Shown: positions 1 through 59,658 of the stretch, in pieces
Layout: every line of letters begins with the position of its first letter
How positions within the stretch are numbered: the stretch's first letter is position 1
Assembly: GCA_000004695.1 (NCBI GenBank)
Contig: CM000155.2
Location: 3,328,001-3,392,000 of the forward strand
DNA length: 64,000 nt
Source of the DNA: Dictyostelium discoideum
Lineage: Eukaryota
Direction: 5' to 3'
Notes under the pieces: generated by a model
Databases searched by the model: none
What the model was told of the DNA's origin: nothing
Seen by the model: only the letters and a program-made list of their open reading frames with translations
Program-made: the position numbers and the translations under genes

Positions 1-2177
1 CAAAAAGATTTGTTGAATTCTATCAAGATCAATATGAAGAGAAAGAAGATAACGAAGAAACCCACAAGAAGTTATTAGAAAAATGGGAAGTAGACGTTGA
101 TTTAATCAAGAAACTCGAGATAGACAGACCGATAAGAATACATGAAGTGACCAAAGCAATCAAAACTTCAAGTATCCACAAATCTCCAGGTTTAGACGGT
201 ATCAATGCACTATTCTACAAGTACCACATCAACTCAATAGCAAGAATATTGACTATAGCTTTCAACGACCTCCTCACAAATAAGAAAGAAATCCCCACAA
301 AATTCAAAGAAGGAGTAATAACAACAATATTCAAAAAAGGAGATGAACTAAACATTTCAAATAGAAGACCAATCACCCTTCTCAATACAGATTACAAAAT
401 TTTAAGCAAAATTCTCAACAGTAGATTATTAGATATCACCAGTAAAATTATCAACAAATTTCAAAACGGCTTTGTTCCAAACAGGTTCATCCAAGACAAT
501 ATTCAGATCATGAAGGAAGTAATAGAAATAAGTAACAAAAGAAAGAACAATACACTCATTACCTTTTACGATTTTAACAAAGCATTCGATTCAATCAGCC
601 ACAAGAGTATCACAAGAACATTAGAGCATATTGGTATCCCCCCAAAATTCACAGCGATCCTACTAAACCTACTCAAAGATACTAAAAACAAAATAAAGAT
701 CAACGACTTTTTAGTCAATGGAATAACAATCAGAAGAGGAACAAAACAAGGAGACCCAATATCACCAACAATCTTTGCTCTAGTTTTAGAACCACTTCTA
801 ATAGATATCATCAATGATAATACAATCAAAGGCTTCACTCTACCAAATTCCAAATCATTAAAACTCACTGCATTTGCTGACGACATAGCAACATTTACAA
901 ACTCCACNGAAGAACTAATGAAAATTAATACTAAAATCCAAAAGTACTGCTCAGCAACATCATCATCGTTAAACAAAGAGAAAACAGTAATGATAGCAAT
1001 AGGAGATAAACCACACGATCTACCATTCCAAGAGAGTACAGTCCCAGAAAGATATCTTGGCCTCAATTTCACCAAAACAGGTTTAAATTCAAAATACAAC
1101 ACTTTAATCCAAGAAATGAAAAACAATCTAATCAAATGGAAATCACAAGCAATAACGATGAAGGCAAAGATGACAATTCTCAAAACATACGTTCTATCCA
1201 AATTAACATACCATCAATACATGGATAATCTAAATGAAGAACAAATTGAGGAAATCAATAACATGACCAGATGGTTCTTATTCTCCTCAGTTAAGAATAC
1301 ATATACAGAAGAGAGAAAATACAAAACTATGATGAAAATAGACAGAGCATATGCAGATTGGAAAGAAGGAGGCATAAAATTATGGGATATAGAACTAAGA
1401 CATATAGCATTCAAAATCTGGTACATGAACAGGCTACTCCATAACAACTACAACAACAACAACAATACCTTACAAGAATGGTACATGGAGCAATTAAGTA
1501 GAAAAAAAGCCCACACTTCAACCCTCAACGATATGTGCAGACACTGGGGTGTATTCAGAGTCAAATTTTACCAAAACCATCCAAAGATAAATGAACTTCC
1601 AGACTGTATAAGAAACGACAATGACGAACCACTAAAACTAAAAGAAATTTACGAACTCATGATCAAAGACAGACACCCAACACCAAGAAGAACAGAATGG
1701 CAGAAGTTATGGGCGGTGAGATACAACACAGCAATACCCAAAGTATTCATAAACATCAACAGCATTTCTCACCAAAAAGGTAGAAACACCCTCTTCAGAT
1801 TCTTCTCAAGATCACTTCCAGGTATCAACCACGAAAGAGACACCAGATGCAAGATCTGTGGCCACCTATTCAGAGACCCTTATTCTCACCTCTTCACTCT
1901 ATGCCAAGATATCCTAGATATTGAAAAAACCATCATATCAACAGTAAACAAATTATCATTCATCAAAATCCACAGATGGTCAATGGATACCTTAGACATA
2001 TCAAAATACAACAGAACTGAGAGAATCTTCCCCAATCTCATAGGAATAATAGCACACCAAAAGAGGAATTTGAGAGGAAATATTAAGGAAATGGAGGAAA
2101 TTAAAATTTTTCCTCTTATTCCTTCGTTTCCACGAATTCCTCTAAAAATTTCTTATAATGTACGGATAACCTTGTAG
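1..2177 (+). CDS. Non-LTR (LINE/TRE-type) retrotransposon ORF2, reverse-transcriptase domain plus C-terminal Cys/His motif. The 5' part (endonuclease) lies left of the window.
   Basis: RT motifs are visible in the translation: FYDFNKAFDSISH, KQGDPISPTIFALVLEPL and TAFADDIATF (an FADD variant of YXDD). The C-terminus has CKICGH...HLFTLC. The frame is open from base 3 with no stop, so the CDS is 5'-partial. Codon usage is less AT-biased than the host genes. There is an ambiguous n at 908. Confidence 0.85.
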   Translation, partial: KRFVEFYQDQYEEKEDNEETHKKLLEKWEVDVDLIKKLEIDRPIRIHEVTKAIKTSSIHKSPGLDGINALFYKYHINSIARILTIAFNDLLTNKKEIPTKFKEGVITTIFKKGDELNISNRRPITLLNTDYKILSKILNSRLLDITSKIINKFQNGFVPNRFIQDNIQIMKEVIEISNKRKNNTLITFYDFNKAFDSISHKSITRTLEHIGIPPKFTAILLNLLKDTKNKIKINDFLVNGITIRRGTKQGDPISPTIFALVLEPLLIDIINDNTIKGFTLPNSKSLKLTAFADDIATFTNSXEELMKINTKIQKYCSATSSSLNKEKTVMIAIGDKPHDLPFQESTVPERYLGLNFTKTGLNSKYNTLIQEMKNNLIKWKSQAITMKAKMTILKTYVLSKLTYHQYMDNLNEEQIEEINNMTRWFLFSSVKNTYTEERKYKTMMKIDRAYADWKEGGIKLWDIELRHIAFKIWYMNRLLHNNYNNNNNTLQEWYMEQLSRKKAHTSTLNDMCRHWGVFRVKFYQNHPKINELPDCIRNDNDEPLKLKEIYELMIKDRHPTPRRTEWQKLWAVRYNTAIPKVFININSISHQKGRNTLFRFFSRSLPGINHERDTRCKICGHLFRDPYSHLFTLCQDILDIEKTIISTVNKLSFIKIHRWSMDTLDISKYNRTERIFPNLIGIIAHQKRNLRGNIKEMEEIKIFPLIPSFPRIPLKISYNVRITL

Positions 2178-2650
2178 ATTTTTCCAAAAAAAAATTAATT
2201 ATAAATTCTCATTTTTTAAAACATAAAACTATAATTTAATAAAACAAATTAATTAATAATAAATAAAATATCACATATTTTTAAAAATCATTATAAATGA
2301 CAAAAAATATTCGGCATATTATTTTTAACATAGCGGTTTTGCTCGTTGGCAGTGGGTGTACAATAAATATATAATAAAAAAAATAAGAATTTTTATTTTT
2401 ATTAAATAAATTATTCCTTATTTAATTTTTTGCAATATAATTATGTATTTTTAAATACTATAATTAGATTGTTATAAAATTATGTATCCTGTTACATTAC
2501 GTTCCGAATACTTCGATTGTTACTAAATCGTGTTTACTCAAAAATATTAAATTAGATTTTTCTCACCCAGGTGGTGAATTTTTAATGACGGTTAGAAAAA
2601 GTGTAAAACTAAATAAAAAGAAAACAATAATTTTTTAAAACACAACAATA
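1..2650 (+). mobile_element. 3' portion of a non-LTR retrotransposon (ORF2 plus about 450 bp of 3' UTR with GC-richer islands). Family undetermined; the 3' UTR differs from the TRE5 C-module copies at 57.5-58.9 kb.
   Basis: ORF2 ends at 2177. GC-richer islands sit at 2300-2345 and 2490-2610 (tcacccaggtggtgaattttt) in otherwise AT-rich sequence. No tRNA gene is recognisable nearby. Confidence 0.55.
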
Positions 2651-2822
2651 AATATATAGATTATTAATTACTATTTATATATTTATTATTTTCTTTTTTT
2701 TCTCATTTTTTTTTTGACTAATATAATTTTAAAATAAACAAATAGTATTTTTTCATAATTAAATAATTTTTAAAAAAATCTAGATAAATATGTTATTTTA
2801 TTATAATTAAAAAATTTTTGGG

Positions 2823-3227
2823 GTTATTTTTTATTTTTTTTTTTTGATTATTTGTATAAATAAAAAATATAAAGTGTTTGTGCGTTGTAGTTTTAAGATA
2901 AATATTTAATCTTAATTCATCAAGTAATGATTGAAGGTGGTCCTCTTTATTTATTTCTAATAAAGCATGAACATCTATAAGTTCCGAAGTTTGACTTTTT
3001 GGTTTATCTACATGCTGAGGTTGACAATCCTTAAGGTGAGCACCTTGTGCTAGAGGACCAGATTGATGATCATGATGTGGATTGGATATTACTTGAGACG
3101 GTAAACTGTCTGTCTCCCATTCATTGTTTTTGTCTTTATCTATTTTTTAAAAAAATAAAAAATTAGTATCAATAATTATTGATTTAATAATTAATAAAGT
3201 GGTTAGTTTAAACTACTTACCAGACAT
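2823..3227 (-). CDS. Small two-exon gene (about 108 aa), paralogue of the gene at 4058-4867. Hypothetical protein.
   Basis: The proposed micro-exon is ATG TCT G (3227..3221) followed by a GTAAGTAG donor. The intron ends ...AAAAAATAG and exon 2 starts at 3139 (GAT AAA GAC...). The resulting ORF MSDKDKNNEWETDSLPSQVISNPHHDHQSGPLAQGAHLKD... shares the PH(H/Y)DHQSGP.AQ / SQT.E.ID block with the downstream gene. It is not in the ORF track because exon 2 has no Met. The 3' end is uncertain because the C-terminal tail is low complexity. Confidence 0.35.
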
Positions 3228-3687
3228 TCAAAATAATTATGAATAATTTTATTTTTATTTTTTTTATTTTTTTTTAATTTTTTTTTTTTTATTTCTAAAA
3301 AAAATGGGCAAAGAAAAGAAATACAAAGAGTTAAAAAAATATATTGTATGTGAGTATTTGAAAAACTATTTGAAACGAAAAATAATTTTATTACTAAAAA
3401 ATAATAAAAAAATAAATTTGAGTGAAAAAATAAAAAAAAATAAAAATAAAATAATTAAATTAAAAATAAAAATAAAAACAATTGTGTGGTGATTCAGTCA
3501 ACAAATAAATCTAAAAAACACGCAAATATTTTTTTTTTTTTTTTTTTTTTTTTTCAATTTAGAAAATAATCCAAAGTATATTTATTAAATATAGTTTTTT
3601 AAAAATTACTATTATCTAATATGAAAAATTTAATAAGAAATAAACTGTGGGTGGGTTTTTTTTTATTTTTTTTTTTTTTACTAATAT

Positions 3688-6533: not shown

Positions 6534-8766
6534 ATGAGTAATAAAACTTTACCATATTGTTGTGAACATGGATTAAAAGATGAAGTTATAGCATTATTAG
6601 CCAAAGGTGAAGATGTAAATCAAAAGGATGGTTCAAATAGATATCCACTTCATTATGCAGCAATTGGTGGATATATAGAGATAGTTGCAATGTTATTAGA
6701 GAGAGGAGCATTAGTAAATTGTTCAACACCACGTGGAGCAACACCACTTCACTATGCAAGTAGAGGTGGTCGTATCGAATGTATTCAATTACTCATTGAC
6801 AATAAAGCAGATGTAAATTGCAGAGATGGTGCAGGTAGTACACCACTTCATACAGCTTTACAATGCAATGAAACTAAATGCGCCATTGCACTAATTGAAA
6901 CCTTTGGTGCAGATGTAAACTTAAAAACCGCTGAAGGTTCAACTGCACTCCATTTAGCTTCTGCTAGAGGTTTAGTACCTGTCATTGTTGCTCTCTTGGA
7001 AAATGGTGCTAGAGCTGATGTTAGAGATTCAAAAGAAAATTCACCATTTCAATCTTTACCAATTAATTTAACTGAAAATGGTAAGTTTTTTAATTTAAAA
7101 AAAAAAAAAAAAAGAAAAAAAAATATATATATATATATATATATTATTTTTAAATAATATTAATCTTGAATAATTTTTTATTTATTTTTTATTATTAGAA
7201 AAAAAAGAAAAAATTGAAAATTCAATTTCTCAAGATATTTCAAAATTATTTAATATTAATAAAAATAGAGAATTTAGTGGTGTAGGAAAAAAAGAAGATG
7301 ATGATAATAATATGAAGATAGATAAACAAGAATCAGAACAACAATCAACATCAGATAAACTTTATTCAGATATAACATTTTTAATTGAAAATCAAAAAGT
7401 TTATGCACATAAATGTATATTACAAGCTAGATGTCCAAATTTTATGTCATCAATTAATAATAAAATAGAACAGCAACAATCACAAAAACCAATAGAAATT
7501 AAAGATTATTCATTTAAATTATTTTTATCATTCATCGAGTGGATATATACAGGATCAATTGAAAAGTTTGAATCAACATCAAAATCAATTGATTTATCAT
7601 TTCAATTTTCAATATTATTAATGGGTGAAAAGTTTGATTGTAAAGGATTAGTATCCTATTGTAGAGAGTTTATTAAGGAGAGCATTGGTGATAGTAATGT
7701 TGGTTCCATTTGGTCAATCATTAAAAAGTTACCAACTTCAACTCGTTCAAATTTAGGTAACCTCGTTCGTGATTGTTTAATTACAATGGTAAGGAGTTGG
7801 AACATTTTCACAATGACTAAAACTTTCTCAACTGATATCAATAAATCCGATATCATTGAAATCATTAAATCACTTGCTCCTTTCATTACCGAAACTCCAA
7901 TCTCTGAAATTAAACAGACTCGTACTGCAAATGCAAATGCTTCAAATTCAAATCAATCTAAAACTCCTGCAAAACGTACTTCAACTACTAATACCAATAA
8001 TAATATACCACAACAAAATATTACATCTTCAAATAATACACCACAACAAAATACATCATCATCATCATCATCATCGACAACTTCATCAACACCTTCAAAA
8101 TCATCATCATCAACACCTTCAAAATCAACCTCAACTTCATCATCATCATCTTCATCTTCATCATCATCATCATCATCATCATCAAATTATTCAGATTCAA
8201 TGAATGAAAAGAATTTAACATTTTGTAAAGGTTTAATAAATGGAATGTTTAAAAAGAAAACATCACTTGCATTCCAAAGACCAGTTGACCCATTGGCAGA
8301 AGGTATTCCAGATTATTTCGATGTTATTAAACATCCAATGGATTTAGGTACTATCAAGGGTAAATTGGATAATAATGGATATTCAACTATTAAAGATTTT
8401 GCAGCAGATGTTAGATTAATGTTTGAAAATGCATTAACTTATAATGCAGATTCATCACCAGTTTGGAAACATGCTAAAACATTACTCAATGCTTTCGATC
8501 AAAAGTTTTTACAAAATTTCCCAAATGAAAAACCTCCAACCTATAAACCACCACCACCAACCCCAACTCCAATCCCAACACAACAACAACAACAACAATC
8601 AACTTCTTCAACATCAACACCAACCTCTGAAAAAAAGAGAAAACATGATGAACATGTTAAAGTAAAAGAAGATACAAATTCTGCCCAACCAACTTCTTCA
8701 TCTTCAAATCATACAAATGGTGAAAATGCTTCATCTTCATCTTCATCATCATCTTCAAAACAATCA

Positions 8767-20759: not shown

Positions 20760-24734
<3,975 letters not shown>

Positions 24735-25955: not shown

Positions 25956-26152
25956 AGAAGATAGCTATTGGCCGATGCGAAATAATATTTCCAGTATTAT
26001 CTGATTTTTGATTTAATAAATGCAAATTAATTACTGATGGAAAAAATAGGCTTTTTGTTAAAAAAAAAAAAAAAAAGATTCTTAATTATTTTTTTGATAA
26101 TTTAATAAGAAAATGAAAGAGTTTTTTTTTTTTTTTTAATTTGGGTTTATCT

Positions 26153-26162
26153 ATCCCACAAA
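26153..26162 (+). promoter_or_regulatory. DUSE-like element (ATCCCACAAA) about 70 nt upstream of the class I RNA candidate.
   Basis: It matches the recalled Dictyostelium upstream sequence element consensus (A/T)CCCA(C/T)AA, which is found about 60 nt upstream of many ncRNA genes. Confidence 0.45.
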
Positions 26163-26231
26163 ATTATTTTTTTATTTAAAATTTCTTATATAATTTTTTA
26201 ATTCTTTTTTTTAAATGTGTAAAACATTTAA

Positions 26232-26271
26232 GTTGACCTTACAGCAAATCTTGCAGAAAACCTTAGTCAAC
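26232..26271 (+). ncRNA. Class I non-coding RNA candidate (DdR-21 family)
   Basis: The sequence is GTTGAC-CCTTACAGCAA-ATCTTGCAGAAAACCTTA-GTCAAC. It has perfectly complementary 6-nt termini (GTTGAC/GTCAAC). The conserved class I 11-nt motif CCUUACAGCAA lies immediately 3' of the 5' stem. A T-run (TGTCTTTTTTTTT) follows and a DUSE-like box precedes. Confidence 0.6.
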
Positions 26272-26294
26272 TGTCTTTTTTTTTAATTATTTGG

Positions 26295-26660
26295 GATAAC
26301 TATCGTTTAAAATTAAAGCTGGTGTAGTTGGTATTCCAATGATTGTATTAATTTGTTGTTGTTATTGTTGTTGTAATGGTGGTGGATTTACATATTGCTG
26401 TGCATTTGATGGTGTTGGTGGTGGTGGTGGATTTACATATTGTTGTACATTTGGTAGTGAAGTTCTAGTACCAGCAGCATTTAGATTGGTTGGTGCAGTA
26501 TGATGAATTAATTGCAATTGTTGATGATGGTGTATTAGTTGAATTTGTATTAGAATCTGTTGTTGCTATTGTTTATTTGTTGCTTTATAAGCAGCAACAG
26601 CTGTTGTTACTGTAGTTGGTATTTCATTTGGTGTTCCAATAACTTTATTAATTTGCTGTT
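26295..26660 (-). pseudogene. Inverted, degenerate partial duplicate of the med8 coding region (corresponds to about 18880-19160), with an internal about 40-bp duplication and in-frame stops.
   Basis: The reverse complement of 18880-19100 (ggtgtggttggtattgtatttggtgttccaatgactgtattaatttgttgttgctgttg...ggtgaagttctagtaccagcagcatttagattggttgg) is recognisable at 26300-26530. By eye identity is about 85-90%. A second overlapping block 26570-26650 matches the reverse complement of 19075-19160. Confidence 0.6.
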
Positions 26661-27347
26661 GTGTTTAGTGAAATAAATTGTGGTATATAAATGTCAATTA
26701 ATAATGCTATTATAATTATTGCAAAAAAAAAAAAAAAAAAAAAGTTTATTTGTTAATTGAATAAATTGATTATTTTTATTATTATAATAAATATTATTAT
26801 TATTTATTATTATTAAAGTTATTCATTTTTGATTCCATATGGCAGTATTTTTTTTTTTTTTTTTTTTATTTGATTGGTTTTTTTTTTTTTTTTTTTAATT
26901 ATAAATTAGGTTGAATATTTTTATTTTTTTATTTTTAAAAAATAATTTATGACAAAACTGTCATTTTCCGAGCTATTTAATGATTTATGGGTGAATGGTT
27001 TCGAAAAATAACGGATCACCTGGTGGTTTTAAAAATTTAAAATAAAATAAAAAATTTTAAAATAAAAAAAAATAAAAAAAAAAAAAAAAAATATTTTCAT
27101 AATTTTTTATTTTTTTTATTTTTATTTTTATTTTTTTTGAAAAGACACCAACATTGCTTTTTTTTTTTTTTTTTTTTTTTTTTTGGAATAAAGGAAAAAG
27201 AAAAAGAAAAAAAAAAAAAAAAAAAAAAAAACAAAAAAGTTTTTGTGTAATGTAATAATTCATTTTTTTTTTTATATGAATGTAAAATCGAAAAAATATA
27301 AATAATAAATAATAAACAATAATAATAAAAAAAAAAAAAAATACTAA

Positions 27348-29677
27348 ATGGAACAGGTTGTGGAATTCCTTGAAAATTGTGATTTATATCCAAAATTAGA
27401 AGGTAAGATTTTTTTTTTTTTTTTTTCCACCCAAACTTCCAAAAAAAAATTATTTTTATTATTTTTATTATTTTTATTATTTTATTATTTTTAAAAATAG
27501 AATATTGAATGAAAATTAATTAATTAATTTAAAATAATTAGAAAAAAAAAAAAACTCAAGAAATCCATTATCAGGTATTATTACAATTATTTATTTACCA
27601 TTATTAATATTTTATTTATGGTTTAGTATTAGACCACAATATGGAGCGTTACCAAATTGTTGTGCATGTGCTGCTCATTCAACACCAAAAGAATCATGGA
27701 TATATGAAGCGATTAAACCTGAATGTATGAATTCAACAAGTTGTAGAGAGAATGTACAAAAACAACTAACACTGAATTGTGATGCAACTTTACAATATTT
27801 ACCGATACCTGATGTCAATTTGACGATGAATATAGCCGAGATTGGGTGTCTAGGTTTGAAACCGGGTGATTCATGTAATGAAGAGTGTTTAGCGGTATCA
27901 AATCGATGGATAACCAGTCTGGACTACACCAACCAAGACAACCAATACCAGGCTATAATCCGGTGTCCTTTGCAAATTGGTGTATGTGATTTCAAGGCGG
28001 TGTATAGTAACCAAGAGACTGCGCCACATGCGGTGTGCAGGTACCCCGAGCTGAATGGGTTGTTGATTATTTTAGGCTCAGGTTTGTCACTATTAAATGG
28101 ATTTTTAATAACACTTCGAATTATGTTACGTACATTTTGGAGTAGAATAGGAGCGAATAATACAAAGAATGGTCGTATGGGTGATTATTGGAAGGGGGTG
28201 GTGATAGGTGTGGTGTTCAATTATTTTGGCATACTTTACCTCTCGCTAGCAAAGGATATCTCCAAACGTATGAGATATGGTGGTCAACTATCGATTGGGT
28301 TTCTACTACTCTTTTTCAAAAGCCCCCTTGTCATTTACCTAATGGCGGTGTTCTCGTCGTTTTGGACTCCGATGGGGATACTACTAGGTTTAGGATTTAT
28401 CGCAGTTTCAATTATAATTAGAACAGTATTCAATTTGGTTGTATTGGAAATCAGATCTAGAAATTGTGTTGTACTATCACAAGGTTCTATTGAACAATTT
28501 GGTATAATCGGTGAAGATAGTGAAGAGTCAAAGAACGATAACCCATTAAGATACTACCAACAACCCGACCGAATTAAACCAGTCCCTTACACCACATGGA
28601 AAGATTTCTTTAAAGGTTTCTATATGAACCTTTTCGCAATAATCCTACTTCACGGCTTAAAGAAATCCTATAAACGTTATTCAGGTTTAAAAAATGGTTT
28701 CTACGTTTCAATTGGTTGTTCAACTATGATCATAGTTTGGATTTTACTTTGGTCATTAAACGGTTGGGATTACATAACTTATAATTTCCCATTCCCACTA
28801 TTACCAAATTTAAATAAATCAACCACCACTACCACCACCATCATTCCATCATCATCAACATCATCAACATCACCAACGTCATCACCATCACCATCACCAT
28901 CATTATCATCAACATCATCATCATCATCATCATCAATTGAATATGTTGAATCATTAACAACAAATGAGTTAATGAAAATTGCATTTTTACAATCAATTTA
29001 TTATGTGATATCATGGGCAATTGCAATGATGATGGTATTTCATTTTAGTTTATTTTTAAAATATTTACCAGTGAATCAAGGGGTAAACTTTTTTAGATTT
29101 TTAAAAAAGAAACATGGTACTCGTATGGATTATAGATTTGGATTTATCGTGGGAATTATACCAGTGGTTTTAACAAGTTTCTTCTTTTTTTATTTCTTCT
29201 TTTATCCATATGTTGAAGCACCGTTACCATCGAATCCATCATTATGTTCATTCCCAGCTTGGACTTTAATCATACCATGTCTTGGTTTACTACCATCAAT
29301 GTTAATGTTTATATTCTCACCAAGTGAAAGATTTAGGTCAGGTATTATCTCTGCGATTGGAGTTTCAATACTTTTCTTTGGTATGGGATCAACCCTATTA
29401 TTATTAAATTATTGTTTAGGTCCGAATCAAGATAAATTCAATCCATTAGCTTGGTTAATCACTTTATTTGGTTCTTTTATTATAGTTTTTGGTTCAATTC
29501 GTAGTGATACCATTTTAATTTTAGATAAAAAAAAAGAGAATCCAAGATTCATAGAAGAGGAAAGATTATTATCTTCATCAACTCAAATTAAAAATATAAT
29601 TGAAGATTCAATTGATTATAATGAAATTATAATTAATAATGGTAGTCAAAATTATAAAACAATTAATAATTCAATTT

Positions 29678-29743
<66 letters not shown>

Positions 29744-29829
29744 TAAATATAAATATTAATAATAGTAATAATAATAATATACCCGAAGGTATAGCCAATA
29801 ATAAAAATAATTATAATTTTGATGATTAA
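27348..29829 (+). CDS. Multi-pass membrane protein (about 9-11 predicted TM helices) with a Cys-rich N-terminal ectodomain, a Ser/Thr/Pro loop and an Asn-rich C-terminus. Two exons: 27348..27402 and 27542..29829.
   Basis: Exon 1 is MEQVVEFLENCDLYPKLE, then G plus a GTAAGA donor at 27403. The acceptor is AATTAG at 27541, in the correct phase, giving ...E/KKKNSRNPLSGIITIIYLPLLIFYLWF.... The main ORF is 27727-29829. There are numerous hydrophobic 20-23 aa segments. The segment 27730-28600 is markedly GC-richer than the rest, with codons such as GCG, CCG, CGA and CTG. Confidence 0.7.
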
Positions 29830-36715: not shown

Positions 36716-36815
36716 NNNNNNNNNNNNNNNNNNNNNNNNNNNNNNNNNNNNNNNNNNNNNNNNNNNNNNNNNNNNNNNNNNNNNNNNNNNNNNNNNNNNN
36801 NNNNNNNNNNNNNNN
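36716..36815. other. Assembly gap (100 N)
   Basis: Run of n. Confidence 0.99.
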
Positions 36816-40443: not shown

Positions 40444-40563
40444 TTAATTCAAAGGGTACCGAGNNNNNNNNNNNNNNNNNNNNNNNNNNNNNNNNNNNNN
40501 NNNNNNNNNNNNNNNNNNNNNNNNNNNNNNNNNNNNNNNNNNNNNNNNNNNNNNNNNNNNNNN
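40444..40563. other. Assembly gap (120 N)
   Basis: Run of n. Confidence 0.99.
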
Positions 40564-56036: not shown

Positions 56037-56136
56037 NNNNNNNNNNNNNNNNNNNNNNNNNNNNNNNNNNNNNNNNNNNNNNNNNNNNNNNNNNNNNNNN
56101 NNNNNNNNNNNNNNNNNNNNNNNNNNNNNNNNNNNN
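56037..56136. other. Assembly gap (100 N)
   Basis: Run of n. Confidence 0.99.
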
Positions 56137-59584: not shown

Positions 59585-59658
59585 GCCTTAGTAGCTCAGT
59601 TGGTACGAGCGTGAGACTGAAGATCTTAAGGTCGCTGGTTCGATCCCGGCCTGAGGCA
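59585..59658 (+). tRNA. tRNA-Phe (anticodon GAA)
   Basis: GCCTTAG-TA-GCTC-AGTTGGTAC-GAGC-G-TGAGA-CTGAAGA-TCTTA-AGGTC-GCTGG-TTCGATC-CCGGC-CTGAGGC-A. The acceptor stem is 7 bp, D-stem 4 bp, anticodon stem 5 bp (one G-U) and T-stem 5 bp. The A box is TAGCTCAGTTGG and the B box is GGTTCGATCCC. The anticodon loop CTGAAGA closely matches yeast tRNA-Phe. Confidence 0.95.

Follow-up and report, generated by a model that had tools for sequence, protein, structure and literature searches.

Identity, anatomy and family membership of the DdR-62 Class I RNA locus on chromosome 6 of Dictyostelium discoideum

Positions 26150-26285 of a 64,000-nt stretch of Dictyostelium discoideum DNA (hereafter the window) read ...tctATCCCACAAAattattt...tttAAATGTGtaaaacatttaaGTTGACCTTACAGCAAATCTTGCAGAAAACCTTAGTCAACTGTcTTTTTTTTTaatt, and had been singled out from the letters alone as an unannotated Class I RNA gene. 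This raises the question of whether the region does encode a member of that family and, if so, whether the gene is new and what sort of copy it is. Judged by its sequence, the locus is DdR-62 (r62, DDB_G0295639), a catalogued Class I RNA gene on D. discoideum chromosome 6. Taken as a whole, the observations are almost certainly best explained by this gene, with a family-type mechanism that is assigned to it by analogy. The sequence match, the layout of the gene, its place in the family and its earlier annotation are each documented below; DdR-62 had already been named and annotated, and is an ordinary gene and no discovery.

Identity and anatomy of the locus

To place the locus among known Class I RNAs, window positions 26232-26273 were compared with the entry '>DdR-62 GTTGACCTTACAGCAAATCTTGCAGAAAACCTTAGTCAACTG' in ddi_curated.fa, a supplementary file of Kjellin et al. 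2021, Genome Res 31:436 (PMC7919456), and were found to be identical at 42/42 positions. In published_class_I.gff (PMC7919456), the dictyBase-style entry r62 / DDB0237400 / DDB_G0295639 lies at chr6 3354232-3354274 (+), chromosome 6 being DDB0232433 with a length of 3,602,379 (PMC7919456 supplement). The offset between the two numberings (3354232 - 26232 = 3328000 = 52 x 64000) places the window at chr6 3,328,001-3,392,000, in agreement with the reference coordinates. The MEME site published for r62, 'GGTTTATCTA TCCCACAA AATTATTTTT' (PMC7919456), corresponds to window positions 26144-26171 over all 28 nt. Tables S2/S3 list a duse_dist of 69, a TGTG distance of 11 and an inter_dist of 58 for r62, against 70, 12 and 58 measured here, the first two being larger here by a constant 1 nt that lies in the base taken as the start. 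The GFF ends the gene at 3354274 and the curated file at 3354273, a discrepancy that comes down to the inclusion or exclusion of the last U of CUGU. Sequence, strand, DUSE flank, motif spacing and coordinates are thus the same for DdR-62 and the locus, and the two are the same object. The elements of the gene and its promoter are as follows.

26153-26162, + strand: extended DUSE (Dictyostelium upstream sequence element), ATCCCACAAA
26154-26161, + strand: DUSE core, TCCCACAA (motif match, published r62 MEME site and DUSE_seq of Table S2/S3)
26213-26219, + strand: TGTG box, AAATGTG, perfect (TGTG-box AAATGTG in Table S2/S3)
26230-26232, + strand: start AAG, comprising the conserved AA (26230-26231) and the 5' G
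26232-26274, + strand: DdR-62 (r62) Class I RNA, GUUGACCUUACAGCAAAUCUUGCAGAAAACCUUAGUCAACUGU (curated identity, GFF, Rfam RF01414 and our own covariance model)
26232-26237, + strand: 5' arm of the terminal stem, GTTGAC (GUUGAC in RNA), pairing 6/6 with 26266-26271
26237-26247, + strand: conserved 11-nt Class I motif, CCUUACAGCAA (DNA CCTTACAGCAA), 11/11 match
26266-26271, + strand: 3' arm of the terminal stem, GTCAAC (GUCAAC in RNA)
26271-26274, + strand: conserved 3' end, CTGT (CUGU in RNA)
26276-26284, + strand: T9 run, possible Pol III terminator

[quoted passage not shown] The distance between the end of the DUSE core and the 5' G is indeed 70 nt. Three more family hallmarks had escaped the original prediction: the 3' CUGU, the AA that leads into the 5' G, and the TGTG box, which ends 58 nt beyond the end of the DUSE and is separated from the 5' G by 12 nt. 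The predicted gene length of 40 nt needs correcting: GTTGACCTTACAGCAAATCTTGCAGAAAACCTTAGTCAAC occupies 26232-26271, and with CUGU included the RNA is 42-43 nt long. Its GC content is 40%, compared with 22% for the window.

Folding of 26232-26274 gave the 6-bp terminal stem GUUGAC/GUCAAC, with 6/6 Watson-Crick pairs, in both the MFE and the centroid structures. The stem-loop showed no extra stability over shuffled sequence (-5.4 kcal/mol, z = -0.22), as is usual when a large loop is closed by a stem of 6 bp.

Loop length and expression of DdR-62

No curated Class I RNA of D. discoideum is shorter than DdR-62, which has 42 nt compared with 43-65 nt in 29 aligned paralogues. In a global alignment with DdR-26, 40/42 DdR-62 positions match, and the two RNAs are separated by a clean 15-nt gap, UUCCUUCAUUCUAAG of the variable loop being absent from DdR-62, in which the junction reads AAAUCUUGCAG/AAAACCUUAG. 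The remaining differences are at loop position 22, just before the 15-nt gap, where DdR-62 has G and DdR-26 has A, and beside the 3' stem, with one more change and a 1-nt gap. DdR-24A/B, DdR-25 and DdR-26 are abundant Class I RNAs of 57-58 nt encoded on chromosomes 4 and 3, and all share with DdR-62 the stem, the 11-mer, a 5' loop segment AAUCUU-CAG and a 3' segment AAAACCUU..GUCAACUG. The sequence on the 3' side of the DUSE, AATTATTTTT, is also common to DdR-62, DdR-24A, DdR-24B, DdR-26 and DdR-21. Because of this shared flank and the alignment, DdR-62 is best read as a copy from the DdR-24/25/26 lineage that appears to have lost the 15 nt UUCCUUCAUUCUAAG from its variable loop and kept the conserved elements. 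DdR-24A/B and DdR-26 lie within ~12 kb of one another on chromosome 4, whereas DdR-62 is the sole Class I match in its 64-kb window. A search of the curated set for an equally short D. firmibasis counterpart found none, and DdR-62 is absent from the text of the synteny figure.

The substitution before the gap can also be described at the level of the fold. Within 26244-26254, the A-to-G difference from DdR-24/25/26 converts CUUACAG to CUUGCAG, and in the MFE structure this allows a predicted 4-bp hairpin in which UUGC is base-paired to GCAA, the end of the 11-mer. According to the literature, the 11-nt motif is normally unstructured or single-stranded in the family.

Published RNA-seq data give very low counts for the locus. 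Table S2 (PMC7919456) lists 0 and 0 reads for the 0 h A/B samples, 10 and 9 for 4 h A/B and 4 and 3 for 8 h A/B, with a 'Read coverage' flag of 0, such that expression was not validated by an analysis that mapped only 50-nt reads. Most Class I paralogues have 10^4-10^6 reads (PMC7919456), and DdR-24A/B, DdR-25 and DdR-26 have roughly 10^5, compared with 0-10 for DdR-62. Among the 28 D. discoideum loci in Table S3 with both DUSE and TGTG box flagged correct, 25 were validated, all with covariance-model (CM) scores of at least 41.9; the other three, DdR-62, DdR-64 and DdR-57, were not validated and have the lowest CM scores (<= 33.8). DdR-62 could therefore be a decaying, effectively silent, pseudogene-like paralogue, in which an intact promoter yields no stable RNA because the 15-nt loop deletion either eliminates an internal element or blocks assembly of the RNP. 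The split of validated and unvalidated loci by CM score (25/25 against 3/3) is in keeping with such a silent copy, as are the internal deletion, the isolated position of DdR-62 as the only Class I match in the window and the predicted pairing of UUGC with the end of the 11-mer.

The read counts bear on this less directly than they appear to. The published RNA-seq, the sole genome-wide validation, drew on small-RNA libraries with 18-70 nt inserts, from which only full-length 50-nt reads were mapped (PMC7919456), and an RNA of 42-43 nt is under-counted as a consequence. The D. discoideum loci with predicted lengths below 50 nt are listed here with their reads.

r42: predicted 45 nt, reads 61-606
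r44: predicted 44 nt, reads 1617-3610
r45: predicted 43 nt, reads 0-3
r57: predicted 49 nt, reads 0
r62: predicted 42 nt, reads 0-10

All five have low or zero counts, whatever the quality of their promoters. As a 42-43 nt RNA cannot give 50-nt reads unless it is extended, the published flag is no evidence of silence, and for Class I loci below 50 nt the low counts or the 'not validated' label may reflect RNA length. A reading of the near-zero counts as evidence of a silent gene is rejected for the same reason, only full-length 50-nt reads having been mapped. Against a silent copy stands also the state of the conserved elements, with the DUSE (8/8), TGTG box (7/7), AAG, 11-mer (11/11), stem (6/6) and CUGU all unmutated, contrary to what is expected of neutral decay, and the few reads that were assigned to DdR-62 are confined to samples later than 0 h. 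On balance, silence of DdR-62 is a serious possibility to which we give appreciably less than an even chance.

The locus may also be put forward, tentatively and as a rather unlikely candidate, as a natural minimal Class I RNA that consists of the stem, the 11-mer and a 19-nt linker. Should DdR-62 accumulate, it would define the minimal functional Class I RNA; should it fail to do so despite its canonical DUSE/TGTG promoter, UUCCUUCAUUCUAAG or the length of the loop would be a determinant of stability or RNP assembly. Either outcome would make the locus a natural deletion experiment for the Class I family. The useful residue of the analysis is methodological, in that the 'not validated' flags of DdR-62 and the other Class I loci below 50 nt rest on 50-nt reads.

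Family membership and prior annotation

Membership of the family was assessed by the definition of Dictyostelid Class I RNAs given by Kjellin et al. 2021 (PMC7919456). The invariant 5' G of the family and the AA before it are present in the AAG at 26230-26232. The ends are joined by a stem of the expected ~6 bp (GUUGAC/GUCAAC), and the first C of the 11-mer is the last nucleotide of the 5' stem arm, as in the rest of the family. The C of the 3' CUGU (26271-26274) pairs with the 5' G. The DUSE of family members lies ~60 nt ahead of either the start or the TGTG box, and the inter_dist of 58 in DdR-62 compares with 57-61 in validated loci with DUSE and TGTG box both flagged correct. Length and GC content fall within the range for D. 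discoideum (~42-65 nt and 32-41% GC), with the length at its lower limit. DdR-62 also scores above both published thresholds (CM >= 25 and classifier >= 32; PMC7919456), with a published CM score of 33.8 and a classifier score of 51.27.

DdR-62 was left out of a covariance model that was built from 29 further curated Class I RNAs of D. discoideum and used to search the window. This leave-one-out model identified 26232-26273 (+) with 52.7 bits and an E-value of 2.2e-13, in support of the predicted assignment to the Dictyostelium Class I family, and this was the only match; no further Class I genes were detected by the model in the 64-kb window, where the runner-up scored 12.5 bits. That runner-up, at 7796-7834 (+) with an E-value of ~0.3, has GUUGG...UCAACUG termini without the 11-mer and is most likely a chance match. 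In the alignment of the 29 paralogues, 97% of the cells of the terminal helix are paired and 3/6 pairs are changed on both sides, and this helix signal collapses once the partners are slid by 1-3 columns. The terminal helix covaries across the family.

Single elements of the locus are less discriminating than their combination. The exact 11-mer CCTTACAGCAA occurs as a single copy in the 64-kb window. The DUSE octamer TCCCAYAA alone, with 4 matches in the window against 5.55 expected, is not significant, and neither is the T-run alone, 8-16% of positions having a T6+ run no more than 12 nt away. The other 3 TCCCAYAA sites (1380-, 39099- and 49743+) have no Class I-like sequence downstream; those at 1380- and 49743+ fall in coding-looking sequence. 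The composite pattern TCCCAYAA-N(45-60)-AAATGTG-N(5-35)-GNNNNCCTTACAGCAA, by contrast, has 1 match in the window and was recovered in 0/100 shuffles. It is the combination of elements that is decisive, unlike a single DUSE, T-run or fold.

Of Rfam families, RF01414 (Dicty_Class_I_RNA) matches DdR-62 over its full length with 35.9 bits (E-value 1.7e-5 in a local search and 0.0044 window-wide), model positions 1-56 being covered and all stem pairs and the 11-mer being present. The score does not reach the RF01414 gathering threshold of 41.5 bits, and a default scan omits DdR-62; the shortfall arises because 14 loop positions are deleted in DdR-62, and no conserved element is at fault. Annotation pipelines that use Rfam alone would miss DdR-62, a curated family member.

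It was in calling the gene unannotated that the original prediction went astray. The silence of an Rfam scan at the gathering threshold, such that Rfam-driven annotation alone would miss the locus, is what speaks for a Class I RNA gene without earlier annotation. Comparison with the annotated DdR loci leaves this reading practically no chance, because r62 is found in published_class_I.gff, which holds the 40 Class I RNAs already annotated before 2021 (PMC7919456), because it is among the 34 seed sequences of the published covariance model (PMC7919456), from which only r48, r53, r54, r55, r58 and r61 were left out (PMC7919456), and because the 2006 Fragrep family pattern GTTGRCCTTACAGCAA...GTCAACTG matches DdR-62 exactly. 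The locus was, moreover, curated under the name DdR-62. The accompanying statement that the gene is invisible to any ORF-based approach holds, and a reading of raw sequence can correctly spot a 42-nt non-coding RNA gene that is missed by ORF-based methods and by the Rfam cut-off. That there is no gene here, only a chance cluster of motifs in AT-rich intergenic DNA, is suggested by the chance frequencies of the DUSE octamer and T-run and by the unexceptional folding energy, and is refuted to near certainty by the 0/100 shuffles for the composite pattern, the covariance-model E-value of 2e-13 against a runner-up of 12.5 bits and the 40/42 positions that match DdR-26, an abundantly expressed paralogue.

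Genomic setting and relation to DdR-21

As in the family generally, DdR-62 is intergenic. It lies in a stretch of 12-34% GC between ORFs that end at 24734 (+) and start at 27727 (+), and no intact long ORF overlaps it. Both flanking ORFs are typical Dictyostelium coding sequence.

20760-24734, + strand: flanking ORF of 1324 aa with very long poly-N, poly-S and poly-T tracts
27727-29829, + strand: flanking ORF of 700 aa, hydrophobic and multi-pass membrane-like, with a poly-N tail

A coding-like Q/P-rich frame with in-frame stops and a GC content of up to 0.34 was also seen at 26300-26670 (-), on the strand opposite the Class I gene and with its end ~25 nt downstream of that gene. Two internal repeats, QQQINKVIGTPNEIPTT / QQQINTIIGIPTTP and NVQQYVNPPPPP / NAQQYVNPPP, are present in this frame, which looks like a decayed small gene or pseudogene. 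The sole other non-coding RNA detected in the window is a tRNA-Phe (GAA) at 59585-59658 (+), with an Rfam score of 62.5 bits. Runs of exactly 100 N at 36716-36815, 40464-40563 and 56037-56136 resemble assembly gaps, and single N are found at 908, 43415, 52362, 52555 and 52670.

Class I RNAs are described in the literature as cytoplasmic, developmentally regulated and intergenic. Their expression needs the DUSE, which is placed ~60 nt 5' of the start or, alternatively, of the TGTG box, and the role of the TGTG box, as a promoter element or as the start site of a precursor, is stated there as undecided. T-runs follow many Class I genes, and transcription by Pol III has been suggested by the authors. 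By analogy with the family, the DUSE and the TGTG box ~60 nt downstream of it would direct transcription of DdR-62, probably by RNA polymerase III, with termination in the T9 run. The mature RNA would be 42-43 nt long, running from G26232 to the CUGU end, and its ends would form the 6-bp stem that presents a mostly single-stranded 11-nt motif. Targeting of mRNAs and sponging of proteins have both been proposed in the literature as Class I mechanisms.

The closest guide to what such an RNA may do is DdR-21, which shares its stem, motif and promoter layout (TCCCACAA and AAATGTG) with DdR-62. [quoted passage not shown] DdR-21 is unlike DdR-62 in being 55 nt long and extremely abundant, with ~10^6 reads, and it is for DdR-21 that Rnp1A binding and a knockout phenotype have been established.
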